63,987 nucleotides of DNA, filler included, from an uncultured Methanosarcinales archaeon (GCA_964397315.1; 4 parts of 4 records of this genome joined end to end with filler, not necessarily neighbours in it); one strand, 5' to 3'; counted from the first letter of the whole stretch, positions 38,913-54,840 are shown. Notes: a model not told the origin generated them from the letters alone. Numbers and translations: made by a program.

Positions 38913-39073
38913 GGGACATTCGCTTTGCTCAGTCCCACGAACTGCCTGTAATCTTAAAATAATGACCCCAAGGGGATTCTGAACGAGCGTCACCACTACC
39001 CTCGGAAGCGAAGCTGGTGGGACATTCGCTTTGCTCAGTCCCACGAACTGCCTGTAATCTTAAAATAATGACC
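38913..39073. repeat. tRNA-associated hairpin mini-element with duplicated tRNA-Arg 3' end (~55-bp tandem duplication)
   Basis: GGGACATTCGCTTTGCTCAGTCCC...AATAATGACC occurs twice; core homologous to 54752-54819. Confidence 0.7.
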
Positions 39074-39242
39074 NNNNNNNNNNNNNNNNNNNNNNNNNNN
39101 NNNNNNNNNNNNNNNNNNNNNNNNNNNNNNNNNNNNNNNNNNNNNNNNNNNNNNNNNNNNNNNNNNNNNNNNNCCAAGGGGATTCGAACCCCTACCGACC
39201 GGGCCGAAACCGGTAGCACTATCCTGGTTATGCTATGGGGCC
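39069..39242 (-). tRNA. tRNA-Arg(TCG); 3' acceptor strand interrupted by a 100-N scaffold gap (39074-39173)
   Basis: GGCCCCA..., ACCGG-TTTCGGC-CCGGT anticodon arm, GGTTCGAATCC; GACC|CCAAGGGG joins seamlessly across the gap. Confidence 0.85.
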
Positions 39243-39427
39243 TTGTGTTTTCGGGTTGTATTTTTTTAGTGGTGCGTACGGTTGAGTGTGGCGAAACCGT
39301 ACCCGCTTTTGCGTGCCAGCTGGGCGTAACCAGCTGTTCTGGTTATGCTATGGGGCCTTTGGTGTTTATAAAACCATCTCTTTTATAAATATAGCCCTAA
39401 GATAAAGCCTCATTCATCTGCAAAGAA

Positions 39428-39589
39428 TCACTCTTCCTTCTTCTTTAATGGGTGCTCTCCCTGGCCGACCCAGATGTAATCATCTTCAGGAGACCTGGGT
39501 TTCCTGTGCCTTGTGATATAATAGTAGGCTCCGAAGCCTATGAGCCCCAGCGCAACCAATACAATTATTACTATCACATAAGGATTCAA
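39428..39589 (-). CDS. Small single-TM protein (53 aa)
   Basis: GGGGTGA RBS, TTG start, hydrophobic N-terminus. Confidence 0.5.
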   Translation of the reverse strand: MNPYVIVIIVLVALGLIGFGAYYYITRHRKPRSPEDDYIWVGQGEHPLKKKEE

Positions 39590-39616
39590 TATGTCACCCC
39601 AGTTTTTCAGGCAGGA

Positions 39617-39898
39617 TTACTTCCTTCCGAGTGTGATCTCAATAGTGCTTACCCTTACCTGCTTTCCTTCCTTGTTCTCGAACTCTTCTGAGTCAATCTT
39701 TATGTCCTTGGGCTCCACTTTTCCTTCCAGGAATCTCTTTGCAGCAACTTCAGCCACGTCAACGCCCCGGCTTATGAATTTTCCCCTTGCCTTTATCACA
39801 ACACTGTCAGCGTTTTTTGTGGTGAACTGCATCACTACGCCTGTCACATAATTCATGAAAGGCTTGTTCCCTATAAACACAGAGTTGTCTTGTGCCAT
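39617..39898 (-). CDS. albA: DNA/RNA-binding protein Alba
   Basis: IG.KP.MNYV, KARG..IS..VDVAE, VS.IEI. Confidence 0.96.
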   Translation of the reverse strand: MAQDNSVFIGNKPFMNYVTGVVMQFTTKNADSVVIKARGKFISRGVDVAEVAAKRFLEGKVEPKDIKIDSEEFENKEGKQVRVSTIEITLGRK

Positions 39899-39924
39899 TC
39901 TTCCACCTCCCTCTGTTCAGCTGT

Positions 39925-40116
39925 CTATGCCGCCTCTTTCCTCTTCAGCCTCGTAACATATCCCGCTATGATGTTCCTTATCTTTTGCGAAGGGAATTCC
40001 ATGAACTTCTCTGCCAGCTTTTTGTTCTCTTCAAAGTCCTCTGTAAACTCGTCTCCGTGAGCGCCTATGAGCTCCTTCACTTTCCTCTTTACCAGCTTTG
40101 TTTTTATCCTTCCCAT
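39925..40116 (-). CDS. rps17e: 30S ribosomal protein eS17
   Basis: MGRIKT, F..DFE.NK, RN.IAGY.T. Confidence 0.96.
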   Translation of the reverse strand: MGRIKTKLVKRKVKELIGAHGDEFTEDFEENKKLAEKFMEFPSQKIRNIIAGYVTRLKRKEAA

Positions 40117-40326
40117 AATCCCCCTTGAAATCTGTGTTGGGCCATCCAATAAGGAATTGATTTATAAATCTTTTGGAAAAAGCAGAGCTTTCAGAGGGGG
40201 CATCAGGCCGGCCTGAGCCAGGAATTACTACAGGGGAGGGGTTGAAAACGAAACCTTTATATATTTGTATATTAACTCTGAATCTCATCCTGATTAATTT
40301 GATAATCAATATGGAGGGGCGCGAAT

Positions 40327-40743
40327 ATGGCAGGATTTTTTTCAAAAATAAGAGAGAGAATGTCAGGTTCTGATGACTTTGAGATACCCAATGAGATTGA
40401 TGAGGGTTATGTGGAGCTGTCCACAGAGGGTGATGAGGGCTCCCAGTCAAAGATAACAGTCAGGCCTTTTGTGCTTGAGGACTTCGGAGACGTGAAGAAC
40501 GTGCTTGACTCCCTCAGGGAAGGGTATACTGTAGCTCTTGTTAACATAAAGCCTCTCAAGGACAAGGATCTTGTTGAGCTGAAGAGGGCTGTCAGCAAGC
40601 TCAAGAAGACTGCTGACGCTATTGAGGGTGACATTGCAGGATTCGGAGAGGACTGGATATGCCTCTGCCCTTCTTTTGCGCAGATACACAGGGAACAGCA
40701 GAAGAAGAAGGAAGTGCAGGACGTTAATCCCGAAGAGTTCTGA
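40327..40743 (+). CDS. sepF: Cell division protein SepF
   Basis: L..G...LVNI..L, ELKRA..KLK....I.GDIAG. Confidence 0.85.
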   Translation: MAGFFSKIRERMSGSDDFEIPNEIDEGYVELSTEGDEGSQSKITVRPFVLEDFGDVKNVLDSLREGYTVALVNIKPLKDKDLVELKRAVSKLKKTADAIEGDIAGFGEDWICLCPSFAQIHREQQKKKEVQDVNPEEF

Positions 40744-40884
40744 TTAGATTATTTATGTTTTTTATGCGCTTTTGATTTTTCTGTCTTAAGTTTATTATCC
40801 TAATAGCTCATGATACTCCCTTTTGGAGAAATGTGTTCCTGCTGGCTTTTCATGGTAATTCCCACCCTTGGGTAGACGATATTT

Positions 40885-40984
40885 NNNNNNNNNNNNNNNN
40901 NNNNNNNNNNNNNNNNNNNNNNNNNNNNTTAATTAATTAANNNNNNNNNNNNNNNNNNNNNNNNNNNNNNNNNNNNNNNNNNNN
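40885..40984. other. Assembly junction (N + TTAATTAATTAA linker)
   Basis: N run with the linker at 40929-40940. Confidence 0.97.
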
Positions 40985-41039
40985 TCACGAGGAGAATTTT
41001 TTCGAGGAAATTGAACTTCCCTTAAGCCCGATGTTAGTT
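40985..41039 (+). repeat. attC-like site 1 (right half only, truncated by the contig end)
   Basis: ...CTTAAGCCCGAT-GTTAGTT, same right end as sites 5 and 6. Confidence 0.7.
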
Positions 41040-41088
41040 GCAATTATTTTCAAGGGCTAAAAATGAGAAGGGGGGACAATTTCAAGAA

Positions 41089-41718
41089 TTACTTTATTGC
41101 TTCAATATCAAATGCTTTCATTTCATCAAAATATATAGTTGGTTTGATCTTAAATTGAGAAAATTTAGATAATATTTGTTTAATTTCTTTTTTAGAAAAA
41201 TAGTGATGAGCCATATGTGGATCATCTTCCATGCCGCCTAAAAAAGTATTTGCTTCAATTTCCTTACCTCTTCCATAACTTGCATCTTTAATTGACATAA
41301 ACTCAGTTACGAGCATGCCTTTAGGTTTAAGAATTCTATATATTTCATCAACTGCTTCTTGATTATCTTTTAATAATCCATGACTTAGAACAAAAATACA
41401 AATTATTGCATCAAAATAATTGTCTGGATAAAAAGTGTGCTTTATATCTGCTACTTTGTAATTAATAGTGCGTAAGCCAATTTTTTCAGCTTTCTTTTTA
41501 GTAATTGATATGCCTGTTTTAGATGCATCTAATGCATAAACTAAAAAGCCTTCTTGAGCAAAGAATAAAGTATTTCTACCAGTCCCAGATCCTAAATCTA
41601 AAATCTTTTTGTATTTATGTTCTCTAAAAATCTGAGCATACTTTTTAATTCGGGGTATTATCTTAGGATACAAATCCCCATGCTTTTTATAAACTATTTC
41701 CCAACCTTCTTCTTTCAT
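41089..41718 (-). CDS. Class I SAM-dependent methyltransferase (cassette 1)
   Basis: ILDLGSGTGR, DAS, FDAI, IYRILKP.G. Confidence 0.9.
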   Translation of the reverse strand: MKEEGWEIVYKKHGDLYPKIIPRIKKYAQIFREHKYKKILDLGSGTGRNTLFFAQEGFLVYALDASKTGISITKKKAEKIGLRTINYKVADIKHTFYPDNYFDAIICIFVLSHGLLKDNQEAVDEIYRILKPKGMLVTEFMSIKDASYGRGKEIEANTFLGGMEDDPHMAHHYFSKKEIKQILSKFSQFKIKPTIYFDEMKAFDIEAIK

Positions 41719-41906
41719 ATAAAATGTTTAATATTTAAAACATTAATAAATGTTACTAAAATTCTTGAAATGAAATTGTCCCCCTGTTATTGTTGGTTCT
41801 TGATAGTCGCTATTCGCTCTTTTGATAGAACACCCTTGAAAATAACTCTTCGGGATTTTTTGCTTCGCAAAAATCGTTGCACTATCCCTCGGTCACTTCG
41901 TGACGC

Positions 41907-42030
41907 AACTAACAGCGATTAAAACTCCGCTCACTTGCAGTTCGCTACGCCCTTCGGTTTTGTGGGTTGCCTCAAAACCTACGGGGAAATAAATCCTTCG
42001 GATTTACTTCTCTTAATCGCGATGTTAGTT
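41907..42030 (+). repeat. attC-like site 2 (124 bp)
   Basis: AACTAAC-AGCGATTAA ... TTAATCGC-GAT-GTTAGTT paired ends with internal CTTCG hairpins. Confidence 0.85.
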
Positions 42031-42162
42031 TCAATTTTTTCGGGGGCTATAAAGATAATGGGGCACACTCTTGATAGTGCTACGCACTCTATTCTTTAAC
42101 TAAATGAATTTGGGAAATCTAGAAGAAATACTAAAAAAATAGTGGGCTAAAATAAGAAGAAA

Positions 42163-42630
42163 TTAGGACAATTTCTCTTTATCCAATAATTGCTTTAACT
42201 TTTGTAATGCTACTTTATTATTCTCCCATTTTAACAAGCTTAATGCTTTATCAAATCGAACCCATTCAAAAGTTTCATGTTCTGGATAAATGTTATTATG
42301 AATAGATATTGATAAGTTTGGATTAACTTCAAAACCAAACACATATTCAGTAATAGTGGGTATTGGTTCTCCTGTAAGATAATGTTTGTTTATCTCAAAG
42401 AGATCCACATTTTCAATGACTCTAGTAATATTTTCTTTTTTAATGCTTGCTTCTTCTAATAGTTCTCTATATGCCGCGTCTAGTTTTGAGTTATCGCTTT
42501 TTTCTAACCCGCCACATGGAGGTTGCCAGAATCCACCTTTTTCTGGAATCCTTTTTAATAAAAGGAACTCAAAAAAACCTTTATTTTTTCTAAACACAAT
42601 ACATTCTATTCGCGTAGTTCTCATTTTCAT
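42163..42630 (-). CDS. NUDIX hydrolase (NudB/dATP pyrophosphohydrolase-like; cassette 2)
   Basis: LLLKR, FWQ..GG.E.....AA.RELLEE Nudix box, EH..FEW. Confidence 0.9.
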   Translation of the reverse strand: MKMRTTRIECIVFRKNKGFFEFLLLKRIPEKGGFWQPPCGGLEKSDNSKLDAAYRELLEEASIKKENITRVIENVDLFEINKHYLTGEPIPTITEYVFGFEVNPNLSISIHNNIYPEHETFEWVRFDKALSLLKWENNKVALQKLKQLLDKEKLS

Positions 42631-43826
42631 TTAACTCCTGACAATTTACAATATGTACTCCCTTCTGGATTTAATTGCCCATATAATTCCATTTCTAATG
42701 TAAATCCTGAACATTTTTTTCCATAATCAATACATTGATCACATCTTTCTTTAAATTGCTTGCTATTTTGTCTAATTGTCTGAAGTCTTTTGTTATATCT
42801 CCAAACATTTAAGAGAGAATACCTTTCAGAAACAATATTTCCTAGAACCAATTCATCTCTTAATTGTGGATTTACATATAATACACAACCTCCAGCATAT
42901 AAATCCCCATTTGACATTATATTAAATCTAGTAAATCCATCTGAACCTCCTTCCATTAAACCAAATTGTTCTGAATTAATGGAGTTTTCTCTCAAACTAC
43001 TGCCTCTGGTCCTAACTTCTAAATTAGGATATTCAGCTTTCAATTCATCCACTTTAATCATAAAAACGCTTAATTCATCATAATCTAAGAGTTTATCTTT
43101 TATTTTTGAAGCTCTACCAATCGGTCTTGGATGAAAGAAACTTATATCATAACAAAATTCATTCGCAAAATCTAAAAGTTTTCTTACGTCTTCTTCATTA
43201 ATTAAAGAAGTAACTACGGAATTTATGGTAACTCTACAACCAGCATAACTTAATTGCTTAATTGATTCTGTTGCTTTGTCAAATGTTCCTTTGCCTCTAA
43301 TATAATTATTTCCCTCCCTAAAACCATCAAGACTAATACTAACTTCATCTGGATTTATTTCAATTAATTTTTCTAAGGTATTTTGGGTATATAAACCATT
43401 TGAGTTTAATGAGATTGTTAATCCGATTTCTTTTGCTCGTTTTAATATTGTATCCCATCCTTCTTTAAGGGTTGGTTCACCTCCGCTAAAACGGACATCA
43501 AATACTGAGTCATTACTTAATCCTTCAATAACTTTTATTGATTGTTCTAAACTTAGTTCATCATTTAATGGAACCCCAGAATTATTTAGACAAGTCTTGC
43601 ACCGAAGATTACAGGCGGCAGTTAAATCAAAATAAACTCTTATCGGAGAATATATTATTGATGTGTCTTTAAAAAATGGCTGATTATCAAATTCGATTAT
43701 GGCGTTATTTTTCTTGAATTTTAAAAAATCTTCATTTAGTAAAAAGAAATGTTCAAAACTATTTGGATCAAATATGGTCTTTCCAAATGTTTCATTTCTG
43801 GATTTAACTTGCTTTTTTTCTTTCAT
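42627..43826 (-). CDS. Radical SAM protein with degenerate SPASM domain (cassette 2)
   Basis: CNLRCKTC, SGGEP, SLDG; C-terminal CDQC-x6-C. Confidence 0.9.
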   Translation of the reverse strand: MKEKKQVKSRNETFGKTIFDPNSFEHFFLLNEDFLKFKKNNAIIEFDNQPFFKDTSIIYSPIRVYFDLTAACNLRCKTCLNNSGVPLNDELSLEQSIKVIEGLSNDSVFDVRFSGGEPTLKEGWDTILKRAKEIGLTISLNSNGLYTQNTLEKLIEINPDEVSISLDGFREGNNYIRGKGTFDKATESIKQLSYAGCRVTINSVVTSLINEEDVRKLLDFANEFCYDISFFHPRPIGRASKIKDKLLDYDELSVFMIKVDELKAEYPNLEVRTRGSSLRENSINSEQFGLMEGGSDGFTRFNIMSNGDLYAGGCVLYVNPQLRDELVLGNIVSERYSLLNVWRYNKRLQTIRQNSKQFKERCDQCIDYGKKCSGFTLEMELYGQLNPEGSTYCKLSGVK

Positions 43827-44261
43827 TGAATGATGTTCTCATTTCTAAATAATTCCATTTCATATTCAAGTTCTTTTTTTTGATTTAGCCCTATGTATTG
43901 CATTTTTAACGATATACAATCCACTACTAGTTATATCTAAGCCTCTTCCATACCCATATCTTAAGGAATTTCTTGCACAATATTTTGGATTAGAGAATCT
44001 TCCAGACAATTCATAAAATCTTGCTATTGCGGATTCCCCTTTAATAAGTCCTAATTCGCATGGTGCTTCAAACATATACTCCATAAGAGCCGAATAATGC
44101 GATTGCCCAACATCAGAAGGATAAAATTTTGCCAATAATTCAGGATAAAACTCTAACACGTTTGTTTCCAATAATTCAAAATGATTAGCAATTTTAGATT
44201 TAATTTGTTCTCTTTTATTCCAACCATCTGGTTTTATTATAAATAAAGTTTTTTCTATCAT
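43823..44261 (-). pseudogene. ndk: Nucleoside diphosphate kinase-like, frameshifted in an A8 run near the 3' end
   Basis: TLFIIKPDG, S.R..YG, NAIH; removing one A gives SKKELEYEMELF...Q* with an ATGA overlap to the next gene. Confidence 0.75.
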
Positions 44262-44262
44262 T

Positions 44263-45456
44263 TTAATAAATACAATATGGATTTTTGTGTTCTGGATTTT
44301 TCTCTCTATAAAATTCCATTTCTATACTTGCTCCGGGACATTTTACATTCTTTTCGGGACATTTTAAACAAGATTCCTGTAATCTTAAACTTATTTCTCT
44401 AAATTCTTTTAATTTAGGAGAATTTCTCCAAATATCTAATAAGCTATAATCTTCTTCTTTGATATTACCTAAATAAAAATCAGGTCTCAAATGCGGAGTA
44501 TAACCTCCAGGCCAGATGGATCCATTAGGTAACAAATTAAACCTTGTAAAACCATCAGGACCTCCCATTTTTAATCCTACGCTCGATGTAACATCAGAAG
44601 ATATTGAATTAACTACCATAACTTTAGATCCATGTAAGATTCTCATCTGCGAATATTTCGGTTTAAGTTTTTCAATTTTTTCATCAAACTCATGTAACTC
44701 TTCGTAGGAAATTACCTGGTCTAAAATTCCAAGTGCTCTACCTGCTGTTCTCATATAAAAGAAATTGATTTCTTCAACAAATCTTCCAGCTAAGTCCAAA
44801 ATTTCTTCAAGATTGTTAGCAGCTCCTTTAGTTAAAACTGTGTTTATTCTTAAATGAGCGCCTTGTTTATGGAGATCTTCGAGTGTCTTAACAGTTCTTT
44901 CGTAGTTTCCTTTACCCCTTATATAATCATGAAAATCCTGACCTCCATCAATGCTAATAGTTATTTGTTCTAAATCCAAACTTGCTAATTGATCAATAGT
45001 TTTTTCAGGATTTCTATAAACTCCATTAGTGTTCAAAGATACAGAAAAACCCAAATCTTTTGCATAACTTAATATTTCAAACCAATCAGGTCTTGCAGTA
45101 ACTTCTCCCCCGCTAAATCTAATATCAAAAACATTGTCATTCCTTAACCCATCTAAAGTTTTTGTTATTTCTTCAGTAGTCATTTCATCAGATTTAGCTT
45201 TTCCAGACTGATTAAAACAGGTTTTGCATCTAAGAAGACAAGCAGAAGTCAACTCAAAATAAATTCTTATAGGAGAATAAATTATATCATCTGGTGCTTC
45301 GGACAAATCCGCAGTCCATTTTTCAAAATCTTCAACCTCTATATCTGAAAATTTCAAATCATCTGCACTTGATAAAAATTTATGGCGCATTCTAACTTTA
45401 TCAAAGAGAGTATATCCAAACTTTTCATCACGTAAAATAAACCTTTTAGCACTCAT
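44263..45456 (-). CDS. Radical SAM protein with degenerate SPASM domain (cassette 2; paralog of 42627-43826)
   Basis: CLLRCKTC, SGGE, SIDG; C-terminal CLKC-x6-C. Confidence 0.9.
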   Translation of the reverse strand: MSAKRFILRDEKFGYTLFDKVRMRHKFLSSADDLKFSDIEVEDFEKWTADLSEAPDDIIYSPIRIYFELTSACLLRCKTCFNQSGKAKSDEMTTEEITKTLDGLRNDNVFDIRFSGGEVTARPDWFEILSYAKDLGFSVSLNTNGVYRNPEKTIDQLASLDLEQITISIDGGQDFHDYIRGKGNYERTVKTLEDLHKQGAHLRINTVLTKGAANNLEEILDLAGRFVEEINFFYMRTAGRALGILDQVISYEELHEFDEKIEKLKPKYSQMRILHGSKVMVVNSISSDVTSSVGLKMGGPDGFTRFNLLPNGSIWPGGYTPHLRPDFYLGNIKEEDYSLLDIWRNSPKLKEFREISLRLQESCLKCPEKNVKCPGASIEMEFYREKNPEHKNPYCIY

Positions 45457-45710
45457 TACTACTAATAAATAACAACAAATATATAAAGATTTTGTTTAAA
45501 AATATAAATAATTTCAGGAATAGAAATTAACTACTCTTCTTCGCCCCAAAACCCCTACGAATAGCAGTAAAGATTTCCCCAATTATAGATGTAAAATAAC
45601 GAGTGTGCCCCTTGATGTATGTTCTAGATGGTCGCTATTCGCTCCAAAGATTGAACGCCCCCGAAAAAACTTTTCGGACGAAATTTTCCCACACTTCGTA
45701 TGGGAAAAGA

Positions 45711-45840
45711 AACTAACAGGAATTTAACGGTTCGCAGGGTCGGCTTCGCCTAAAACGCCAAGCGTTTTCCTCTGCTCTCCCAAATTCAAAATTTGTGGGT
45801 TGCCTCAAATTTTGAACTTCGTTAAATTCCTCAGTTATAT
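45711..45840 (+). repeat. attC-like site 3 (130 bp)
   Basis: AACTAAC-AGGAATTTAACG ... CGTTAAATTCCTCA-GTTATAT. Confidence 0.85.
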
Positions 45841-45902
45841 TCAATTATTTTTCAGCCCCTAAATAGAAATCTTTATGAACTTTAATATATAATCTTATTA
45901 TT

Positions 45903-46163
45903 ATGAGTGATTTTGAAAAAAGGCTTAATGCAATTGAGCAAAGAAACAAGAAAGTTGAATCAGATAAAGCTTGGGAAACAAGCTGGTCAAGAAAAATAAT
46001 AATAGCCGTTTTAACTTACGCCACAATAGTATTATTTTTCTTTGTTGCTCAATTGCCAAAACCATTCATTAATTCTATTGTTCCAACAGCTGGTTTTGTT
46101 CTTTCAACATTATCCTTGCCTTTTTTCAAAAAAATATGGTTGAAGTATGGGGCTAAAAAATAA
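45903..46163 (+). CDS. Small two-TM membrane protein (cassette 3)
   Basis: RN.KVE.DKAWETSW.R followed by 2 TMs; own TATA box. Confidence 0.8.
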   Translation: MSDFEKRLNAIEQRNKKVESDKAWETSWSRKIIIAVLTYATIVLFFFVAQLPKPFINSIVPTAGFVLSTLSLPFFKKIWLKYGAKK

Positions 46164-47550: not shown

Positions 47551-47670
47551 ATATTACGGAAATTATATGCTCATTATAAAGCTTTTGACGGTTTTAGATT
47601 ACAAACTCTTCGGGATTTTTTCACTTCGTGAAAAACCACTTGCAGTTATCCCTCGGTCACTTCGTGACAC

Positions 47671-47695
47671 AACTAACAGGAATCCGATGTTACTC
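47671..47695 (+). repeat. Minimal attC-like site 7 (25 bp), array terminus
   Basis: AACTAAC-AGGAATCCGAT-GTTACTC; GC content returns to host level immediately after. Confidence 0.7.
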
Positions 47696-47696
47696 C

Positions 47697-48152
47697 TCAA
47701 AGGAATCTGCTCATTATGCTGAGGTCCTCACCATCCACGAAGTGGCTCCTGAGAAGTCCTTCCTCTTCAAATCCTGTAGAGGTGTAGAATTTTTTGTACT
47801 CCTGGAATGTCAGCGCGTGCAGCTTTCTTATGCCTCTCTTCCTGGAAATCTCAATGATGCTCTCAAGAATCTCCCTTCCATTACCTTTCCCCCTGTGCCG
47901 GGGCCACACAACCAGGTCTCTTATCTCTGCTGTGCCGCTCACATCAGTGATGAGAGAGACAGTCCCTATCCTTTCCCCTCCTTTCATGTAGATAAAGAAC
48001 TCATCATTATTTATCTCTTTCTTGTGCCCCTGCTTAAGGTAATCCTCAGCCCACTTTTTGTCATACTGCGGAGCTCCCCTCTCCCTCCAGTACTCTGCAA
48101 GAAGCTCTGCAGCTTCGCTCTCATCCTCAGGTTTAAGTCTTTCCAGGGCCAT
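47697..48152 (-). CDS. GNAT family acetyltransferase
   Basis: LVV.P.HRGKG.G, FY...GF..EG. Confidence 0.9.
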   Translation of the reverse strand: MALERLKPEDESEAAELLAEYWRERGAPQYDKKWAEDYLKQGHKKEINNDEFFIYMKGGERIGTVSLITDVSGTAEIRDLVVWPRHRGKGNGREILESIIEISRKRGIRKLHALTFQEYKKFYTSTGFEEEGLLRSHFVDGEDLSIMSRFL

Positions 48153-48238
48153 GCAAAACCCTTAAAAAGACTCATATAAAAATATAGCGGACAAGACCTT
48201 CCGATATATTTATTAAACATTCCCCCTCCTGCTGTAAT

Positions 48239-49396
48239 ATGCGCATGCCCGACTACAGGGGAGGGAGCCTTGTGAACCTGATGAGTTCGATCTCCCGGGC
48301 TCTTGGAGGGAAATCAAGTTACAGCCAGCTGAAGCAGCTGCCTTCAAGCAAGTTAAAGAACTCAAGGAATATCATCCTGATTGTCCTGGACGGCATTGGT
48401 TATGAGTATATTAAAGAGAAAGGCAAGAAAACCGTTTTTCAGGAACATCTTAAAGGAGTTATCACATCTGTATTCCCCTCAACTACAGCCTCTGCAATAA
48501 CGACCATCCTGTCAGGATTAGCACCACAACAACACGCCATAACAGGCTGGTTTGTGCACCTCAAGGAGATAGGGGCTGTGACCGCAATCCTGCCTTTTGT
48601 TACAAGGGCAGGGGGCCAATCTCTCGCCAAAGCAGGTGTAAGGAAGAGAGACATTATGGATTTCAAAAGATTTGAAGACGGTCTTAAGGCTGCCTCCTGT
48701 AATGTGACCACGCAGAACATAAAGAGGGATGAATTAAAAGACGGCACCAGCAAAAGAACAAGCGTTCTGGGTTATACAAATTTAAGGGGGTTCTTCTCGC
48801 AAATAAAAAAAGCAGTCAGGTCCAGCAATAAGAGAAAATTTGTTTACGCCTACTGGCCAGGGTTTGACGCAATAGCCCACCAGGAAGGGGTAAGGAGCAG
48901 AAAGGCAGAGGATCATTTCAGGCAGATCAGTAAAGAGCTGGGCTCATTTGTTGAGGGCATGAGGGGCACGAACACAACCATTATTATAACCTCTGATCAT
49001 GGGATGATTGACACCAGCGGTAAAAGAACAATCCGCTTGGAAGACCACCCCGGGCTAAAAGAATGTTTGACACTTCCCCTCTGCGGAGAGCCCCGCGCAG
49101 CGTATTGCTATGTTCATCCGTCCAAGACCAAGCAGTTTGAGAGGTATGTAAGAAAAAAGCTTGGGAAATGCTGCCGTCTGTACAGGAGCGAGGAACTCGT
49201 CAAAAGGAACTTTTTTGGGTTATACAAGAGGAATCCCAGGCTGAACGACCGCATTGGAGACTACACAATAATCATGAAGCATGATTATATCATAAAGGAC
49301 AGGCTTCCCGGAGAGGAGGAGAGGATTCTAGCGGGCAATCATGGAGGGCTCAGCAAAGAGGAGATGCTTGTTCCTCTTGCAGTAATCAATCTATAA
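48239..49396 (+). CDS. Alkaline phosphatase superfamily / nucleotide pyrophosphatase
   Basis: VLDGIG, FPSTT, D..AH, SDHG, HGG.S..EM.VP. Confidence 0.9.
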   Translation: MRMPDYRGGSLVNLMSSISRALGGKSSYSQLKQLPSSKLKNSRNIILIVLDGIGYEYIKEKGKKTVFQEHLKGVITSVFPSTTASAITTILSGLAPQQHAITGWFVHLKEIGAVTAILPFVTRAGGQSLAKAGVRKRDIMDFKRFEDGLKAASCNVTTQNIKRDELKDGTSKRTSVLGYTNLRGFFSQIKKAVRSSNKRKFVYAYWPGFDAIAHQEGVRSRKAEDHFRQISKELGSFVEGMRGTNTTIIITSDHGMIDTSGKRTIRLEDHPGLKECLTLPLCGEPRAAYCYVHPSKTKQFERYVRKKLGKCCRLYRSEELVKRNFFGLYKRNPRLNDRIGDYTIIMKHDYIIKDRLPGEEERILAGNHGGLSKEEMLVPLAVINL

Positions 49397-49455
49397 CAAG
49401 GGTTAACACGCCTCTTATGCAGCAGTCCTGAGAGACCAGGACCATAACACACAGC

Positions 49456-50721
49456 TCATGTCCCCTCCTGCCAGCTGGCCATGTACTTCTTCTGCTCCTC
49501 TGTCATCTCATCAATCCTCAGCCCCATTGCCTCAAGCTGCAGCCCTGCTATTGTGTCATCAATCTCCTCTGGAAGCTGAATAACCTCCACAGGCAGATTT
49601 CCCTTGTTTTTAACGCAGTACTCAACAGCAAGAGCCTGGCCGCAGAAAGATGTGCTCATTACCTCAGATGGGTGGCCTTCTGCTGCTGCAAGGTTCACGA
49701 GCCTTCCCTCGCCTGCAACAAACAGCTTTTTTCCGTCAACAATGTACTCGTCAAGGAAGGGCCTCACTTTTCTTTTTCCTGAAGCAAGCTCACCAAGCCC
49801 TTTTAGGTCTATCTCTATGTCAAAATGGCCTGAATTCGCGAGTATAGCCCCGTCTTTCATCTGCTTCATGTGCTCTGTCCTTATGGCATGCTTGTTTCCT
49901 GTCAGGGTGCAGAATATGTCTCCTATCCTGCATGCATCCTCCATCTTCATAACCCTGAATCCGTCATATGCTGCCTGCAGGGCGCAGAAATTATCCACTT
50001 CAGTGACTACGACATTCGCGCCCATGCCTTTTGCCCTCATTGCAAAGCCTTTGCCGCAGCTTCCATAGCCTGCAACCACCACTGTTTTTCCGGCAAACAG
50101 CACATTTGAGGCTCTTATTATGCCGTCAACAGTTGACTGGCCTGTGCCGTAGTAATTGTCTAAAAGGTGCTTTGTCTTGTTGTCATTGACCGCTATCATG
50201 GGGTATTTCAGGGCATTGTCCTTCTGCATTGCCTTGAGCCTTATTATTCCTGTTGTTGTTTCCTCACACCCCCCTATTATCTCAGGTATGAGGTCAGTGT
50301 GCTTCTGGTGTATCTCTGACACAAGGTCGCAGCCGTCATCTATTGTTATGTTGGGCCTGAATGATATCACATTACTGAGGTACCTGTAATAGTCCTCGTC
50401 TGTCTCTCCCTTGTATGCCCATACACTGACTCCATCCTCTGCAAGGGCTGCTGCCACATCATCCTGTGTTGAGAGGGGGTTGCAGCCTGTTATTGCCACA
50501 GAGGCGCCCCCTGCAATAAGTGTCCTTACAAGAACTGCTGTCTCTTTTGTAACATGCAGTGCCAATCCCACCTTCACTCCCTCAAGGGGCTTTTCCTGCT
50601 CAAACCTCTTCTTTATCTCCATTAATGCCCCCATGTGGCTCTCTGCTATCTCAATGTTCATCCTGCCCTGTCCTGCAATGCTCATGTCCTTTACCTCATA
50701 ATTGTCTCCAGTATCCATCAT
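49456..50721 (-). CDS. ahcY: Adenosylhomocysteinase
   Basis: CNPLSTQD, EETTTG, DN.YGTGQS, GRLVNL..A.GHP. Confidence 0.97.
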   Translation of the reverse strand: MMDTGDNYEVKDMSIAGQGRMNIEIAESHMGALMEIKKRFEQEKPLEGVKVGLALHVTKETAVLVRTLIAGGASVAITGCNPLSTQDDVAAALAEDGVSVWAYKGETDEDYYRYLSNVISFRPNITIDDGCDLVSEIHQKHTDLIPEIIGGCEETTTGIIRLKAMQKDNALKYPMIAVNDNKTKHLLDNYYGTGQSTVDGIIRASNVLFAGKTVVVAGYGSCGKGFAMRAKGMGANVVVTEVDNFCALQAAYDGFRVMKMEDACRIGDIFCTLTGNKHAIRTEHMKQMKDGAILANSGHFDIEIDLKGLGELASGKRKVRPFLDEYIVDGKKLFVAGEGRLVNLAAAEGHPSEVMSTSFCGQALAVEYCVKNKGNLPVEVIQLPEEIDDTIAGLQLEAMGLRIDEMTEEQKKYMASWQEGT

Positions 50722-50973
50722 AACCACCTTCTGCGCCAGGAATACCGCACTATTATATAATTTTCCAGGCTATTACCGGACATTGTCCATCAAATCTTCC
50801 AATGTTCCGGACAAAAAACAAAATATTTAAATATATGCTGGACATACCCTCTGAAAGGAGACAGAACCATTGAGCCATACTTCTTCATGGCTCTGAGGGG
50901 TGGTAGGTTCATATGACACTCATCGCCATATGATACTTGTTGGCGCAAGTAATCATCCCTTGGAGCCTAAAAA

Positions 50974-51405
50974 ATGAAACTTGACGGAAAAGACCATGCC
51001 ATCATATCCCTACTTAAGGAGAACTCCAGGCTGTCAGTCAGGGAAATCGGCAAGAAAACAGGCCTCAGGCCGTCCACGGTGCATGACAGGATAAGAAAGC
51101 TGGTCAAGAACAACATAATAGAAAAGTTCACCCTCAAGCTGAACAACAGGGCTGTGGGAGAGAATTTCATTGTTTTCATGCTCGTCGCAGGAAAGCCAAC
51201 AGAGTATGTGGGAGAGACAATGCTGGGCCACAGGAACATAAAGGAGGTGTTCGGCATAACAGGGGAGTATGACATGATATTCAAGCTTAAGTTCAGGGAT
51301 GTTGAGGAGTTCAACGATTTTGTGATAAAATTCAGGAAGCAGAACAGGAACGTGACAAAAACAATGACAATGGTCGCCACAGCCACGCTCAAGGAGGAAT
51401 TGTGA
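50974..51405 (+). CDS. Lrp/AsnC family transcriptional regulator
   Basis: LD..D..I...L..N.R HTH; GITGEYD RAM domain. Confidence 0.92.
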   Translation: MKLDGKDHAIISLLKENSRLSVREIGKKTGLRPSTVHDRIRKLVKNNIIEKFTLKLNNRAVGENFIVFMLVAGKPTEYVGETMLGHRNIKEVFGITGEYDMIFKLKFRDVEEFNDFVIKFRKQNRNVTKTMTMVATATLKEEL

Positions 51406-51529
51406 GAGAAAACTACAATGCAAGACTGGAGCTGACATACAAAAGGCCTGGCAAAGATACTCGGCAGGGAAGAGACAACAAAGGGAATCAGGAAAAAATA
51501 TAAAAAGAGAAGAGCATGGCAGGATAAGA

Positions 51530-52099
51530 ATGAACAAGGGCTTAAGAGCAGCAGCAATAGCAGGCATCGTCTATCTTGTGTTATTCCTGCCCCTCCTCTT
51601 TCTTAAATCCATGGGCAAGGTGGGAGGAGGCATACCTAACGGAATGCTTGTGGTTTTTCTTGCTATCGCGCTTGCAGAGCTTGCAGCCGGAGTGGTATTC
51701 ATAAGAGGGTTTGTAATCATGGGAGGAAAGCTCAAAAGGGATTTCCTGAGGATAATGGCGTGGATAGCGCTTGTAATAACAACCCTCCTGTCAGGCTATG
51801 ACATGATAAGCATACTTCACCAGGAAGCAGCAAGCCCCACAGCAGGGATAATCATGCTTTTCATTTTTGGAGTTGTGGGGGTGTTATTCGGGGCCTCCCT
51901 GCTGCCTCTCAAGAAAAGATTCGGAAAGCTCGCCACTTCCGCGGGAGTAATGGAGATCATCTCCGGCGCAGCTGCAGTGACCATACTCCTTTCAATAATA
52001 ACAATCCTGCTTTACATACCTTTGGGCATAGTTAAGGTTATTCTTCTTTTCAGGGCCTCTGAAAAGTTCAAGCAACAAAAATCCGCAGCTCACGGTTAA
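51530..52099 (+). CDS. Multi-pass membrane protein
   Basis: About six TM segments. Confidence 0.75.
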   Translation: MNKGLRAAAIAGIVYLVLFLPLLFLKSMGKVGGGIPNGMLVVFLAIALAELAAGVVFIRGFVIMGGKLKRDFLRIMAWIALVITTLLSGYDMISILHQEAASPTAGIIMLFIFGVVGVLFGASLLPLKKRFGKLATSAGVMEIISGAAAVTILLSIITILLYIPLGIVKVILLFRASEKFKQQKSAAHG

Positions 52100-52190
52100 T
52101 AGGCTAAAGGTTTCAAAAAGCTAAGCTTTTTGGAACACCAAAAATTGAAGATTTTTGATTCCCACGGCTTTAAGCAGCCGCTTTTGGCAG

Positions 52191-52260
52191 GCGGATTTCT
52201 GGAACTTTTAAAAGCCTTCATCTCCGCACCAAAGTGCGGAGCTTCCGGCTTATTAAAAGT
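52191..52260. repeat. 70-bp REP-like palindromic repeat, copy 1
   Basis: 68/70 identical to 56005-56074; CTCCGCAC-NAAA-GTGCGGAG hairpin. Confidence 0.8.
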
Positions 52261-52291
52261 GACTGCCGCCTTCCCCCTATGATAGAGCCTA

Positions 52292-54265
52292 CTAAAAGAG
52301 GTGCCTGAAGAAAAGAAGTATCCTCTGGATAAAAGAGACATCCACAAGGGAAATCTCAATCTTTTCAGAATCAGAATATTTCCTGCCCCTTGCATCCTCA
52401 TAGGAGAGGTTCATGTGTATTGGGTTTTTTCCCTCCTGCAATCCGCTTCCCTTAAGCTCCAGCTCGTATTCCTTCCCCTCCTCAAGCATGCCATAATCGT
52501 ATTCCCTTTCAAGCCCTGCACCATAAACCCCCACTAGGGCATTATGGGCTGGAGCTTCAGAGGCCTTGTCCAGGCTGAACCTGACACTAAACTCATCCCC
52601 ATACCCGACCTCTGCCGGAAACTCAACATCACCTATGCTGAACTCAGGAGATGGAATGCCCTCAAAGGCTATCTCCCTGCTCTTTGAAACCCTCTCATTA
52701 CTGATGTAAAGAGAGAGCTCATTCCTTCCCTTCTCTACATTCTCTATTGTGAATGTGAAATTCTTCTGCTGAGTTATGCCGAGATGAGAGGCAGCGCACC
52801 TGCCGGCAAGGCATATGCTAAGATTCCTGAAGAATATATTGCCCACATTTCTTATGCTGCATTCTATGGAAGGGGACTCGTAAGTGTAATACCTGTCTGA
52901 ATAATTAGTGCAGGACACCTCAAGGTTGCCAGCGTAGGCTTTCTCATGCCTTTTCCTTGATGCAGATGCTGACTTCCGAGCCTCCTCAAGCGAGATCATG
53001 CTCCCCTCCCCCATTGAGCTGAATGAGCCCCCTGAGGTTGCATTGTCAAGCGTGAAAACCTCATAGGGAAATGTGTATATGTAATCCCTGTCAAGGCCCC
53101 CCTGAACCTTTACGATCCAGCTTGCCTCCTTCACCTCACCTGGCCTGAGAAGGACATGCTTCTTTTCCGCGCCAAGAATGTCAAGCCTGCTGGTCCTGGA
53201 TATCCTAATGTCCTTGGAAACATAATAATCCTTAAGGTTGGTTATCCTGGCTTTTATCACATTATAGGAGCTGAAGCCAGTCTCATCCTCCATAACATCT
53301 GATTCTATTGAAACCTCATGGCCTTTCTCATCCCCTATCTCAAGCACACCTATCTGCGTCTCAAGATCATTAAGATCAAGGGATACACCCCCCTCTGCCT
53401 TCCACTGGTAGGTTGAGGTTATCTTCTCAGCGTCACTTGATATTGAAGTCACAATGTGAGTGGGGTCCACCCAGCCATACTCGCCGTATGTCACGTCATA
53501 AGGCACCCAGCCGTAACCAGGAAAATAGACTTCAGCCCAGCCATGAGGCCCCCAGTTGTCCGCTATCTGGGGGGAATTAGTGTATGATATTCCAGCCACG
53601 AACCTCGCAGGTATGCCCAGGGATCTCAACATTGATATGAAAAGAGAGGTTATCTCATCACAAACGCCTTCCCTGTTCTCAAGCACCCAGCTTGACTTCT
53701 GGGAAGCCTCAGCAGTGATGGTGGAGAAATTATAAGATATATTTGTGTTCACCCACACTGCAATGCTGTCCACAACATCCATAAGGTCATCCTTTCCTGA
53801 GGCTATATCAGAGGCTGTGTTTATTATGTTCTCATCTATGTCTATTATCTCAGCGGGCAGAGTGTATTTTCTTGCCTCATCAGGAATGTTTTCCAGGGGG
53901 AATCTTATTTTCCCTGACACCCTCACTGGATCATTCTCCACCTTCACGATGGAATCCATGTCTATGAAAAGCCTTGACTGGCTGGGCTTGTCCCACCTGA
54001 AGACTGCTGTCTCACCAATGCTTTCTGGCTCAGGGGAGAAATCAGTCTTTCTGATGGCCTGCCCTGCTGTTTCCTTGGGAAAAAAGGATATGTTGGCTGT
54101 TATGAAGTCAATCTTTGGAGAGGGGCTTAAGGAGACCACCTCCAGCTCGGTTGACAGCCTAACATCAAGAAGCATATGCCCGCTGTTGTAGAATCTGGAT
54201 TCCTCAATGCCGTGGCAGACAGGCAGTATAAGAAGCATGAGTATGAGGAGGATTGCTTTTTTCAT
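52292..54265 (-). CDS. Secreted transglutaminase-like protein
   Basis: Signal peptide from MKKAIL; GVCDE, HGWAEVY, W.PYD.T Cys-His-Asp triad. Confidence 0.88.
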   Translation of the reverse strand: MKKAILLILMLLILPVCHGIEESRFYNSGHMLLDVRLSTELEVVSLSPSPKIDFITANISFFPKETAGQAIRKTDFSPEPESIGETAVFRWDKPSQSRLFIDMDSIVKVENDPVRVSGKIRFPLENIPDEARKYTLPAEIIDIDENIINTASDIASGKDDLMDVVDSIAVWVNTNISYNFSTITAEASQKSSWVLENREGVCDEITSLFISMLRSLGIPARFVAGISYTNSPQIADNWGPHGWAEVYFPGYGWVPYDVTYGEYGWVDPTHIVTSISSDAEKITSTYQWKAEGGVSLDLNDLETQIGVLEIGDEKGHEVSIESDVMEDETGFSSYNVIKARITNLKDYYVSKDIRISRTSRLDILGAEKKHVLLRPGEVKEASWIVKVQGGLDRDYIYTFPYEVFTLDNATSGGSFSSMGEGSMISLEEARKSASASRKRHEKAYAGNLEVSCTNYSDRYYTYESPSIECSIRNVGNIFFRNLSICLAGRCAASHLGITQQKNFTFTIENVEKGRNELSLYISNERVSKSREIAFEGIPSPEFSIGDVEFPAEVGYGDEFSVRFSLDKASEAPAHNALVGVYGAGLEREYDYGMLEEGKEYELELKGSGLQEGKNPIHMNLSYEDARGRKYSDSEKIEISLVDVSFIQRILLFFRHLF

Positions 54266-54289
54266 CTTACCACTTTTTGAATGGAAAAA

Positions 54290-54414
54290 CGCCGCGGCTG
54301 GGACTTTCAGGCGCAGGCCCCGCCTAACGCTCTTTGAACCCAGATATCCCGAAGGAAACCAGATTTCTGCGCATGATAGCAATCTGGCGCAGTACCAGGT
54401 TGTGCCACCGCGGC
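54290..54414 (-). tRNA. tRNA-Ser(GCT) with two introns (37/38, 54365-54376; T-loop 59/60, 54304-54332)
   Basis: GCCGCGG/CCGCGGC acceptor stem, CCAGA/TCTGG anticodon stem, variable arm TCC-TTCG-GGA, BHB central helices TTGC/GCAG and TTCA/TGAA. Confidence 0.88.
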
Positions 54415-54638
54415 AATAAATTGCTTTGCTCTGAAGCCGCTTAAGCATTACCAGCAGCTATTCGGGCCATTCCGAGCAAAGCGAGGATATGGCCCTTGAT
54501 GGCCGGGTCAAGGAAGAAGACCCTTGAGCTGGTTGTGCCACCGCGGCAATAAGGCTTCTGCTTGCAACCCTATTTTTATAGTTTTCCCTTAAAAAAACCA
54601 AAAAGATTTATAAATGGGTTGCTGTTTGGCCATGGTAT

Positions 54639-54729
54639 AGCGAGGTGGGGCAGTCAGGAGTGCCCGACGGGCTCATAATCCTCTTGTTGGGAGACCCGTA
54701 GGTCGGTGGTTCAAATCCACCCCTCGCTA
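54639..54729 (+). tRNA. Initiator tRNA-Met(CAT) with 16-nt intron (54678-54693)
   Basis: A1:T72 pair, GGG/CCC anticodon stem, BHB CTCA/TGGG. Confidence 0.92.
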
Positions 54730-54751
54730 TGCTAATGCTCTCAGATTTTTT

Positions 54752-54840
54752 CGTGGGACTAAAGCTTTAGCTTTATGTCCCACCGGGTTCGCTTCCGAGG
54801 GTAGTGGTGACGCTCTTCTAAATCCACCCCTCGCTATGCT
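54752..54840 (+). repeat. tRNA-associated hairpin mini-element followed by a 21-bp duplication of the tRNA-iMet 3' end
   Basis: GTGGGAC...GTCCCAC-TTCGCTTCCGAGGGTAGTGGTGACGCTC shared with 38983-39044 (reverse complement); 54820-54840 = 54713-54733. Confidence 0.8.

Follow-up and report, generated by a model that had tools for sequence, protein, structure and literature searches.

How does the same short, ORF-less sequence come to lie behind two different tRNA genes, each time followed by a second copy of that gene's own 3′ end? The initial annotation had noticed this behind tRNA-iMet and tRNA-Arg in the window, by which we mean the whole stretch of 63,987 nucleotides (filler included) analyzed here; it consists of joined MAG contigs, and the two sites lie on separate ones. 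A non-autonomous element that targets T-arms and duplicates its target had been proposed. We arrive at a different reading, a tentative one whose chances we place somewhat below even: the element, here called E, together with a carried gene end would form a non-autonomous integrative cassette, mobilized in trans or through homologous recombination.

The shared block belongs to a family of structured elements

The repeated block is real: the 28-mer common to both sites occurs exactly twice in the window, at 38985-39012 (−) and 54788-54815 (+), with no match of any kind in 100 shuffles, and twice in the whole 1.47-Mb genome. The block represents one subfamily of E, a structured element of about 65 bases composed of hairpin 1, a conserved linker and hairpin 2. 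The family is much broader than had been claimed; using two covariance models, R1 and R2, for detection, we obtained 20 matches in this genome. Both stems covary strongly. In an alignment of 57 copies, which was fitted to the covariance model and is not independent of it, 94% of the paired cells were in agreement with pairing, against 33-53% with the partners slid, and 16 of 17 stem pairs showed compensatory changes; the observed values were reached in 0 of 500 shuffles. RNAalifold, run independently on 8 copies, gave compensatory changes in 10 of 17 pairs. Judged from these alignments, the structure of E is under selection, since stem pairing and compensatory changes exceed the slid and shuffled controls. 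Near E copies, Rfam 15 matched only tRNA and rRNA models, and no known RNA family for E itself. Solo copies have no terminal inverted repeats; at nine loci, E-like units form inverted pairs, in which the hairpin-2 ends face outward and the units are some 10 nt apart.

Copies of E in the window adjoin tRNA genes

The window holds four full copies and one partial copy, all adjoining tRNA genes, and the four full copies adjoin the three tRNAs called by Rfam, which agrees with the strong tRNA link first described. At the tRNA-iMet gene (CAT; 54638-54730, +; called by ARAGORN, and by Rfam at 54639-54729 with 51.6 bits), a target gene with an anticodon-loop intron, the gene-attached copy of the repeat, X, runs from the T-loop to the 3′ end and on through 4 nt of trailer (54713-54733, +). 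A spacer that is T-rich at its end and unconserved between copies (54734-54749, +) leads to E, with hairpin 1, linker and hairpin 2 (54750-54815, +; R1 76.3 bits, R2 65.4 bits). The displaced copy, X′ (54820-54840, +), is an exact 21-nt repeat of X, starts 4 nt (TTCT) past hairpin 2 and runs on into the native downstream flank. Comparison of empty and filled loci, as the initial annotation had suggested, showed iMet sites without the insertion in three congeners.

Beyond the two copies already described, both of which are present, three more were found. Behind the elongator tRNA-Met, which has an intron (32100-32216, +; Rfam 62.4 bits), lies an E of another subfamily (32246-32318, +; R2 50.7 bits), followed by a 28-nt X′ with the T-arm, 3′ end and trailer of tRNA-Met (32324-32351, +; first copy 32194-32221). 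The second is a divergent E-like unit, of the "F" type on the other strand (54458-54526, +), read from the sequence and the family alignment, with no R2 match. Its hairpin-2 end faces a displaced 17-nt 5′ stub of tRNA-Ser(GCT) with a TATA box upstream (54531-54547, −; exact repeat of 54398-54414). The gene itself would be a putative tRNA-Ser(GCT) with two introns, in the anticodon loop and the T-loop (54290-54414, −), as read by eye; neither ARAGORN nor Rfam calls it. The third lies upstream of and antisense to tRNA-Arg (39273-39336, +; R2 40.7 bits, E-value 2.3e-7), next to a displaced 19-nt 5′ stub of that gene, up to the D-loop and preceded by TATA-like boxes (39339-39357, −; exact repeat of 39224-39242).

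The tRNA-Arg gene (TCG; 39169-39242, −; ARAGORN/Rfam) is cut by a 100-N scaffold gap (39074-39173). The E on its 3′ side (38985-39047, −; 83.1 bits) is part of a 106-nt unit and is followed by X′ (38913-38979, −; partial model match 38903-38941). A copy of the tRNA 3′ end thus follows E at both sites as first described, 21 nt long at tRNA-iMet; at tRNA-Arg it is longer than claimed, 67 nt, and takes in the 3′ end, the trailer and the 5′ part of hairpin 1, that is, a partial further unit.

Scaffold gaps lie exactly at three loci (tRNA-Arg, a tRNA-Val on another contig, and L107), as would be expected if the duplications were misjoins at repeats in the MAG. We checked the Arg region in contigs from three public runs of one study. 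One contig bridges the gap without adding a base, so that tRNA-Arg is intact. The 106-nt unit recurs across the runs and appears as cyclic unitigs of 136 nt (106 + k-1) at 14-21x, against flanks at 4-9x; this depth, 2.4-4 times that of the flanks, indicates about three copies. The cyclic unitigs fit a tandem array and free circles equally well; the site is probably a tandem array. Tandem units, of which gaps are an expected effect, are also present in the assembled sequence of other loci. The iMet junctions were found in contigs of all three runs, and the architecture of E was found again in MAGs and metagenome contigs of other projects, which excludes misassembly as a general cause. An assembly artefact is therefore extremely improbable.

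Direct repeats of variable length accompany E

An upstream direct repeat (score at least 26) was detected for 48 of 74 E copies; the reversed-sequence control gave 2 of 74. Of the 48 repeats, 43 begin within 6 nt of hairpin 2. The sequence copied behind hairpin 2 has its source 0-159 nt upstream and is 15 to ~125 nt long. The spacer between X and E (median 26 nt, range 0-159 nt) is unconserved even among near-identical E copies, and the stretch from X to E holds no gene remnants. Among the 26 copies without a repeat are 9 inverted pairs, 3 intronic copies and 3 in a dispersed longer repeat.

The junction in the T-loop holds for many copies, which join tRNA 3′ ends from that loop, but restriction to T-arms, or to tRNAs at all, does not. 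Other copies lie at tRNA 5′ ends from the D-loop (with E antisense), in an anticodon loop or at the 3′ ends of protein genes; further ones are in an iteron-like array or inside other elements. Both orientations relative to the gene occur. Repeats at tRNA 5′ ends take in untranscribed upstream promoter DNA. Of 60 other E loci, 20 have an Rfam tRNA no more than 130 nt from the copy, and tRNA-Ser(GCT) was targeted in two species with different E subfamilies and junctions.

A MITE-like non-autonomous transposon that recognizes tRNA arms could leave such repeats as target-site duplications from staggered cuts. Direct repeats flanking each element, inverted pairs resembling those of MITEs, and E copies nested in other E copies (L051, L091, L078) speak for it, as does the composite at L091, which is inserted in another copy with only ~3 nt repeated at the junctions. 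However, the repeats have no fixed or narrow length; the unconserved spacer sets the first repeat apart from E, which leaves no defined element directly flanked by the repeats; the two repeat copies differ by synonymous or compensatory changes at four loci; and no transposase (Y1_Tnp, TnpB domain) is common to E-carrying genomes among five of the genus. We consider this transposon unlikely, and target duplication as the mechanism is probably wrong, given the repeat lengths, the spacer and the differing histories of the copies at those four loci. MITEs, REP/REPIN and the PATEs of IS200/IS605 resemble E in being short, ORF-less, hairpin-forming and multi-copy, with inverted pairs and mutual insertion; the repeats of E, in contrast, are long, variable and set off from it by the spacer. 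IS200/IS605 elements are not known to make a target duplication. A REP/RAYT element or IS200/IS605 PATE was rejected, since Y1 (HUH) transposase and TnpB are not common to the genus and duplications are the rule for E.

The gene-attached copy appears to be the incoming one

Four loci, with short sequences, bear on which copy is native. At L078 (GAPDH), the same 14 residues are encoded by both copies, with 7 codon differences; in the displaced one, the gene end has agg, att, gtg and tga in common with relatives, and the orthologous site is empty in this genome. At L065, the final 30 nt of the repeat contain 7 differences, every one synonymous. At L088, the C5-A68 mismatch of the present tRNA-Phe would be repaired by the stub. 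At L070, the 5′ stub pairs with the 3′ stub and neither pairs with the present tRNA-Ser; a second, older 3′ stub follows. These loci indicate that the displaced copy would be the native end and that the gene-attached copy would have arrived with E. Plain homologous exchange between species with an old insertion could yield the same pattern of foreign and native copies, leaving the first insertion unaccounted for.

E is found in 12 of 17 genomes of the family; of 150 others sampled in the order, 5 carry it (6 of 151 in the order-level sample with this genome counted in), a patchy spread at both levels. Together with the nested copies, the empty iMet sites and the differing insertions at tRNA-Ser(GCT), this spread speaks for mobility. 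Such patchiness, together with congeners whose orthologous sites are empty, is at odds with a module of the host, acting as RNA or DNA in the leaders and trailers of pre-tRNAs (a motif for processing, termination or protein binding, for instance), with repeats that come from local replication slippage or gene conversion initiated at the hairpins. Slippage should duplicate the whole of X-spacer-E, not X alone, and differences that are only synonymous do not agree with slippage followed by neutral decay; nested copies and the use of both orientations also count against such a module. In its favor are the strong covariation, a sequence kept between genera (two of them have an identical 28-mer), the existence of tandem arrays, and orthologous sites occupied in several species, where X equals X′ inside each species and differs between species. 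On balance, a host module seems very unlikely.

Search for an enzyme or a parent element

No recombinase, integrase or transposase was found near the iMet or Arg site (Pfam, 18 neighboring ORFs), as the initial annotation had held for integrases. The matching HUH transposase, integrase or reverse transcriptase for which it had suggested looking did not emerge as a linked gene either: among five genomes of the genus, RVT_1 occurs in one and Y1_Tnp in one (on contig C20 of this genome), none has the TnpB nuclease domain, and the only recombinase common to all five is a XerA-like tyrosine recombinase of ~300 aa. No full-length, gene-carrying version of E was found.

Integrase crossovers reportedly fall in T- and anticodon loops (Williams, 2002). 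As described in passages of PMC3293823, archaeal integrative elements rebuild tRNA genes, leave direct repeats and pass on attP/attB mismatches; this parallel speaks for the cassette reading. A gene rebuilt from the element copy with the native end displaced as a repeat is seen at four loci only, L078, L065, L088 and L070. Copies of E could also be relics of larger integrated viruses or plasmids, with E as the attP-proximal arm and the body since deleted: the rebuilt gene, the direct repeat and the tRNA-loop junctions match the archaeal attL/attR described there, and the genome has three extra integrases, one of which adjoins a tRNA called tRNA-Val by ARAGORN. Against such relics, the spacers are uniformly tiny (maximum 159 nt) and hold no gene remnants; E gave no match in IMG/VR (3 patterns) or in plasmid and phage collections; R1 has no match on either integrase-bearing contig, and the single R2 match, on one of them, is 1.4 kb from an integrase, within a tRNA intron and not at an attachment site; and the 3′ end of the integrase-adjacent tRNA has no copy of at least 15 nt elsewhere in the genome. 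We regard a viral or plasmid origin of this kind as decidedly improbable.

Elements of the SSV1 and pNOB8 types, with tyrosine integrases, share with E the inheritance of mismatches between incoming and resident sequences and the use of protein-gene ends, according to the same passages (PMC3293823). Unlike them, E has no integrase or any ORF; its insert is ~65 nt plus a spacer of 0-159 nt, with a covarying two-hairpin structure as the conserved part; its repeat varies from 15 to 125 nt; and it shows antisense D-loop junctions and frequent tandem arrays. The duplication made by casposons is fixed at ~14-15 bp, and a protein-gene 3′ end is also used by them. Casposons, which insert at tRNA-gene 3′ ends with target duplication (PMC5137440, in part), resemble E in that choice of site and differ in being large and encoding Cas1.

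Copies of E as tRNA introns

Three E copies make up the bulk of tRNA introns, at position 37/38, in the D-loop and in the T-loop: L036 (H4, h5, h'6), a tRNA on contig C2 and a tRNA-Ala on contig C8. In two, the bulge-helix-bulge (BHB) motif is complete, and in the third both bulges and the helix between them are present; the BHB of the tRNA-Ala was assigned by hand. For the two intronic copies of this genome, in silico removal turned the ARAGORN result from "0 genes" into tRNA calls. The window's own E copies show no BHB with two 3-nt bulges and a 4-bp helix.

These introns, their removal restoring tRNA calls, and the position of junctions in loops might suggest a route through RNA, in which E, as a mobile BHB intron, becomes ligated into loop-cut RNAs and is then reverse-transcribed and recombined into the genome. 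Yet four of the five genus genomes have no RVT_1 reverse transcriptase, the repeats include untranscribed promoter DNA 5′ of tRNAs, and a scan for BHB motifs splicing X to X′ did no better than palindrome expectation, so that this route has a low probability. Split tRNA halves of the Nanoarchaeum type were rejected as well, since every stub in the window has an intact gene next to it and the X-to-X′ scan gave no signal above chance.

Transposition of tRNA introns has been proposed in Thermoproteales. E resembles archaeal BHB introns in that related sequences occur at different tRNA positions, with BHB geometry in three copies; it differs in that most copies lie outside the mature gene, in leaders or trailers beside a spare gene end, and also at protein genes. 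A 2026 preprint on Asgard archaea describes the route of intron arrival as still open (10.64898/2026.10.13.758758). The tRNA-disruption model for Caldiarchaeum (Sugahara et al. 2012; PMC3293823, in part) likewise has an insert between a tRNA fragment and the full gene, intron gain from the incoming copy, and stubs that may scatter later. There, the insert is 1.8 kb, encodes a recombinase and occupies one locus, whereas E is gene-less, occurs at dozens of loci and several gene types, and is itself the bulk of three introns.

Proposed mechanism and implications

We propose the following scheme for the integrative cassette. The incoming unit would be X-spacer-E, with E as the conserved structured end, joined to a copy of the host gene end and a short trailer. 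The cassette would recombine with the resident homologous gene; the incoming copy would rebuild the gene, and the resident end would be displaced to the stub X′ right behind hairpin 2, the E-side join tending toward the loop of a target hairpin (T-, D- or anticodon loop). We infer both the arrival of X together with E and the action of recombination in trans. Since the finished X-spacer-E-X′ has two homology arms to one target, it could spread into naive relatives by ordinary homologous recombination, form tandem arrays and receive later rounds on top. Where the far copy is used by the gene and a BHB is available, E and the decayed near copy would be spliced out as a tRNA intron.

Several points weigh against the cassette reading. 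Double-stranded circles of 100-250 bp, the size of a free unit, are small for site-specific recombination, and repeats of 15-21 nt are poor substrates for homologous recombination. In addition, 26 of 74 copies lack a repeat, the search for a gene-carrying version and the viral, plasmid and phage collections gave nothing, no recombinase is linked, and the scheme offers no explanation for the pick-up of a new gene's end.

A further step, possible but rather doubtful, is that these archaea gain introns and stubs of tRNA genes, and perhaps split genes, by way of E. A gene-less cassette with a spare gene end would enter the loops of tRNA arms, and the copy that is kept would decide whether the outcome is a harmless insert in the leader or trailer or a new BHB intron in the D-, anticodon or T-loop. 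If this is true, E would be a separate class of mobile element, which moves by carried homology and a structured end and has no enzyme of its own. Because some of its copies became tRNA introns, this gene-less family in tiny Woesearchaeal archaea may show how tRNA introns arise.

Copies of the element in the window

The window is drawn from an MAG of 1.47 Mb (61 contigs, 93% complete), and features on the two sides of its separators (N44, 12 letters and N44 at 20824-20923, 40885-40984 and 60808-60907) lack the physical linkage that the window suggests. The initial annotation had reported that the same mini-element follows tRNA-iMet and tRNA-Arg, each time with a duplicated tRNA 3' end. Our analysis confirms this observation at two sites that belong to different contigs. 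The 28-mer shared by the two elements occurs twice in the window (never in 100 shuffles) and twice in the whole genome. At tRNA-iMet, a 21-nt block running from the T-loop onward plus 4 nt is found again 4 nt past the element, and the block repeated at tRNA-Arg(TCG) measures 67 nt and extends into hairpin 1 of the element.

With the second of two covariance models of the element (hereafter E; hairpin 1, a linker and hairpin 2, about 65 nt without an ORF), four full copies and one partial copy were detected in the window, all adjoining three tRNAs called by Rfam. The full copies lie after tRNA-Met (32246-32318, with its repeat at 32194-32221 and 32324-32351), after tRNA-Arg (38985-39047), upstream of tRNA-Arg and antisense to it (39273-39336), and after tRNA-iMet (54750-54815). 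A 19-nt 5' stub of tRNA-Arg bearing TATA-like boxes is located at 39339-39357. A fourth tRNA of the window, recognized by eye, is a tRNA-Ser(GCT) with two introns at 54290-54414 (minus strand); its 5' stub, 17 nt long and with a TATA box, is located at 54531-54547, and between the two lies F, a divergent E-like unit (54458-54526). Of additional note, genes for Alba, ribosomal protein S17e and SepF were identified by eye or Pfam near the tRNA-Arg site and are consistent with an archaeal source. At 42627-45456, a gene resembling nucleoside-diphosphate kinase sits between two radical-SAM/SPASM proteins, and a NUDIX hydrolase adjoins them, on a contig (C23) whose GC content, 42%, is below that of most of the genome.

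The possibility that these arrangements are assembly artefacts was examined with contigs from three public sequencing runs, which belong to a single study of a microbial mat. The junctions at tRNA-iMet are present in all three runs, as loose ends of longer contigs. A 100-N scaffold gap (39074-39173, inside contig C22) interrupts tRNA-Arg, and one contig spans it with no extra base. The 106-nt unit at tRNA-Arg appears in the three runs as 136-nt unitigs with a depth of 14-21 against 4-9 in the flanks; since 136 nt equals the period plus k-1, these represent a cyclic path. In run X3 the depth was 17.5 for the repeat part, 14.3 for the element part and about 5 for the flanks. The site therefore holds roughly three units, in tandem or partly as free circles, and the contigs fit both. 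Scaffold gaps are found at three element loci, and such loci break assemblies; that the duplications are artefacts of assembly is nevertheless a reading to which we assign a negligible probability.

Structure and distribution of the element

A two-hairpin consensus built from 8 copies showed compensatory changes in 10 of 17 pairs. Among 57 aligned copies, 94% of cells pair, compared with 33-53% when the partners are slid, both-side changes occur in 16 of the 17 pairs, and none of 500 shuffles reached the observed values; the alignment was itself fitted to the covariance model, which tempers these pairing figures. The hairpin 2 loop and the hairpin 1 apex keep similar short motifs while the stems vary. 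No curated Rfam family fits E. That such a structured unit is a module of host RNA seems to us improbable.

Matches to the 28-mer with up to 3 mismatches are confined to the family (5 of 17 genomes, including this one), and a scan of a 401-genome sample of the order matched this genome only. Searches of contig collections gave four loci on genome contigs and three on metagenome contigs. In relatives within the family the block follows tRNA-Glu, tRNA-Ser and a protein-gene 3' end, of which 60 nt are repeated, and metagenome contigs add a tRNA-Gly locus and an iteron-like array. In the latter (L011), the spaced repeats around the copy share GTTGTCGG and look like plasmid or viral iterons or an origin region. 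The covariance models later showed that the 28-mer scan had underestimated the spread. The first model, from 8 copies, matched 12 of 17 family genomes at E <= 0.1, with 10 places in this genome. The second gave 20 hits in this genome at E <= 0.01. Across 151 genomes sampled evenly from the order, it matched six at E <= 1e-6: two from this family, counting this genome, and four that represent one further family apiece, with the same architecture in the other-family genomes. Three patterns of the element gave no match in IMG/VR, and plasmid and phage collections likewise contained no match to the E patterns. Literature searches of main article texts returned no description of such an element.

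Organization of the loci and their targets

On the element strand, the typical order is the gene with its attached end, a spacer, E, a displaced copy of the gene end (the stub) and the flank. A direct repeat was found in 48 of 74 copies (local score >= 26), against 2 of 74 when the downstream sequence was reversed, and in 43 of these 48 it begins within 6 nt of hairpin 2. Its aligned length ranges from 15 to more than 110 nt (median 25.5), and the spacer from 0 to 159 nt (median 26); in the longest case, the last 41 codons of a gene are repeated over 125 nt. The stub commonly starts with 3-5 matched bases, followed by a 1-nt insertion or mismatch and then a long perfect block, as in GTTC-N-AAATCC against the T-loop GTTCAAATCC.

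By eye, the targets fall into several kinds. At tRNA genes, the repeated end is either the 3' end, starting in the T-loop or taking in the T-arm entire, or the 5' end, which then reaches to the D-loop and includes promoter DNA further upstream, with E antisense to the gene. Other targets are the 3' ends of protein genes (GAPDH and, recognized by eye, an SRP54 homologue among them), one hairpin located downstream of a gene, and further copies of E. An Rfam-called tRNA lies within 130 nt of a copy, or around it, at 20 of 60 loci, a count that misses several intron-rich tRNAs obvious by eye. The 20 matches in this genome divide into 10 at or in tRNA genes, 2 at protein-gene ends, 1 partial extra unit at the tRNA-Arg site and 7 within a longer dispersed repeat, as part of which these 7 probably spread. 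The dispersed repeat (C1:97433, C11:33496, C11:26264, C7:808, C25:16164, C19:27661 and C3:69648) is at least 250 nt long, with highly similar upstream sequence and a Shine-Dalgarno-like AGGAGG after each E; it may represent leader sequence of a family of paralogous genes that spread with E inside the leader. At one locus (L033), a weak match about 1 kb upstream is a candidate for a distant first copy, from which a 267-aa membrane ORF separates the element. The view that the copies are relics of larger elements is, in our judgement, quite unlikely.

Which copy of the repeat is incoming

Four loci bear on the direction of duplication. At the GAPDH gene of a congener (L078), the peptide encoded by the final 14 codons is identical to that of the displaced copy, with 7 codons differing, including TCA versus AGC; agg, att, gtg and tga of the displaced copy are common to relatives, and the gene-attached copy has AT-richer codons. 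The orthologous GAPDH site in this genome is empty. At L065, the repeat has one difference in its first 95 nt and 7, all synonymous, in its last 30 nt. At L088, the tRNA-Phe gene now in place carries a C5-A68 mismatch; with the displaced stub the pair would be C5-G68, and the stub has its own, different and self-consistent T-stem. L070 has the order promoter, 5' stub, F-type unit, full tRNA-Ser(CGA), E, 3' stub, E and older 3' stub; here GCCACGA of the 5' stub pairs with TCGTGGC of the first 3' stub, not with the present gene (GCCAGAA/TTCTGGC). The ortholog of the tRNA-Glu site was not found in this genome by blastn.

From these sequence comparisons, the stubs look native, and the gene-attached ends and spacers look imported. 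This pattern fits badly with target-site duplication and with slippage. The mechanism proposed in the initial annotation, an element that targets T-arms and duplicates its target, is only partly right, and a transposon making long target-site duplications we regard as unlikely. An imported gene end with a displaced native end is the behavior of integrative elements, as described in a report on Caldiarchaeum (PMC3293823). We tentatively favor the reading that E is a gene-less integrative cassette with a structured end. Since both arms match one target, this pattern would also result if a naive relative took up an existing allele (attached end, spacer, E and stub) by ordinary homologous exchange; the evidence from the four loci accordingly bears on spread, and not on the first capture of a new target.

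Introns and inverted pairs

Most of the intron sequence in three tRNAs consists of an E copy, in each case antisense to the tRNA. In a tRNA-Ala(CGC) (L036), a 120-nt intron at 37/38 has a full hBHBh' (bulge-helix-bulge, BHB) motif, and the interrupted gene scores 50.6 bits in Rfam. A tRNA on contig C2 of this genome has a 93-97-nt D-loop intron with BHB geometry (H4, h3-5, h'5-7). The third is a 105-nt T-loop intron of tRNA-Ala(TGC) in the 16S-23S spacer on contig C8, whose BHB was read by hand: the outer helix is the T-stem, the central helix TTCG/CGAA and the bulges AA|A and AG|T, and the inner helix is weak. A permissive BHB scan of this region yielded noise only. The same tRNA-Ala (C8:2500-2900, L055) has another E with a 5' stub upstream, and was missed by ARAGORN and the full-length Rfam model. 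When the segments were removed in silico, ARAGORN went from "0 genes" to tRNA-Ala(TGC) on C8 and to a tRNA with a second intron on C2. The start of a T-loop intron in tRNA-Gly (L013) looks, from its sequence, like a decayed copy of the gene's own 3' end. ARAGORN, run with introns allowed, called no more than 21 tRNAs in a genome that is 93% complete, and almost all of these bear introns; non-canonical or multiple introns probably hide many other tRNA genes.

We also considered splicing from the attached end to the stub. A BHB scan gave hits in 17 of 74 locus-orientations, not above expectation, and the idea was rejected because such a scan amounts to finding palindromes within a direct repeat.

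Aligned F copies are E-like on the opposite strand, with a hairpin bearing the same kind of apex, a linker and a second hairpin. At nine loci, F and E stand head to head about 10 nt apart with their hairpin 2 ends outward, and these pairs lack long repeats. Some of them are lodged in the loops of hairpins; in L051 and L091 the pair interrupts a further copy, always at one set position of its hairpin 2; and in L064 it lies within a BHB intron. The BHB motif of L064 is strong (H4, h8, h'4, with an outer helix of 8 bp) in an RNA without an Rfam match, and is the sole strong case; the rest are weak. In relatives, L064, L068, L076 and L087 contain further repeated structured sequence, a long hairpin starting GGCAACAACAATGGCGCAG, which in L064 is bounded by the strong BHB motif.

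Candidate enzymes

Pfam searches of 18 neighboring ORFs returned housekeeping genes only, in agreement with the earlier statement that no integrase is nearby. Among five genomes of the genus, a XerA-like tyrosine recombinase of about 300 aa is present in all, three more integrases in this genome only, RVT_1 in one and the TnpB nuclease domain in none. An HUH transposase (Y1_Tnp), named by the initial annotation as a possible partner, is present in this genome only. No autonomous partner of E was found among these enzyme classes in the five genomes. A route at the RNA level has, in our estimate, a slim chance.

Two tyrosine integrases of about 400 aa with C-terminal zinc-ribbon motifs are encoded at C2:75018-76421 and on C36, a contig of 35% GC, and one of them begins just past a tRNA called tRNA-Val(CAC) by ARAGORN. 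They probably belong to an integrated element in one case and to a contig of plasmid or viral origin in the other. E is absent at their borders, and the integrase-adjacent tRNA on C2 has no second 3'-end copy of 15 nt or more, so that no attR was found.

Discussion

How archaeal tRNA genes came by introns in unusual places, by stubs and by split halves is an old question. A 2026 census of Asgard tRNA genes leaves the route of intron arrival open (10.64898/2026.10.13.758758), and the 2012 Caldiarchaeum model concerns one locus with a 1.8-kb recombinase-bearing insert (PMC3293823). Here one recognizable element is visible in all stages: it adjoins intact genes whose stubs are fresh, overlies older stubs, is nested in other copies, forms tandem arrays and makes up the body of introns at three tRNA positions. 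For annotation, promoter-bearing stubs may pass for genes, and ARAGORN probably undercalls tRNAs in this genome. Since one element is found in all stages, the question can be tested through RNA sequencing and through comparison of complete Woesearchaeal genomes.
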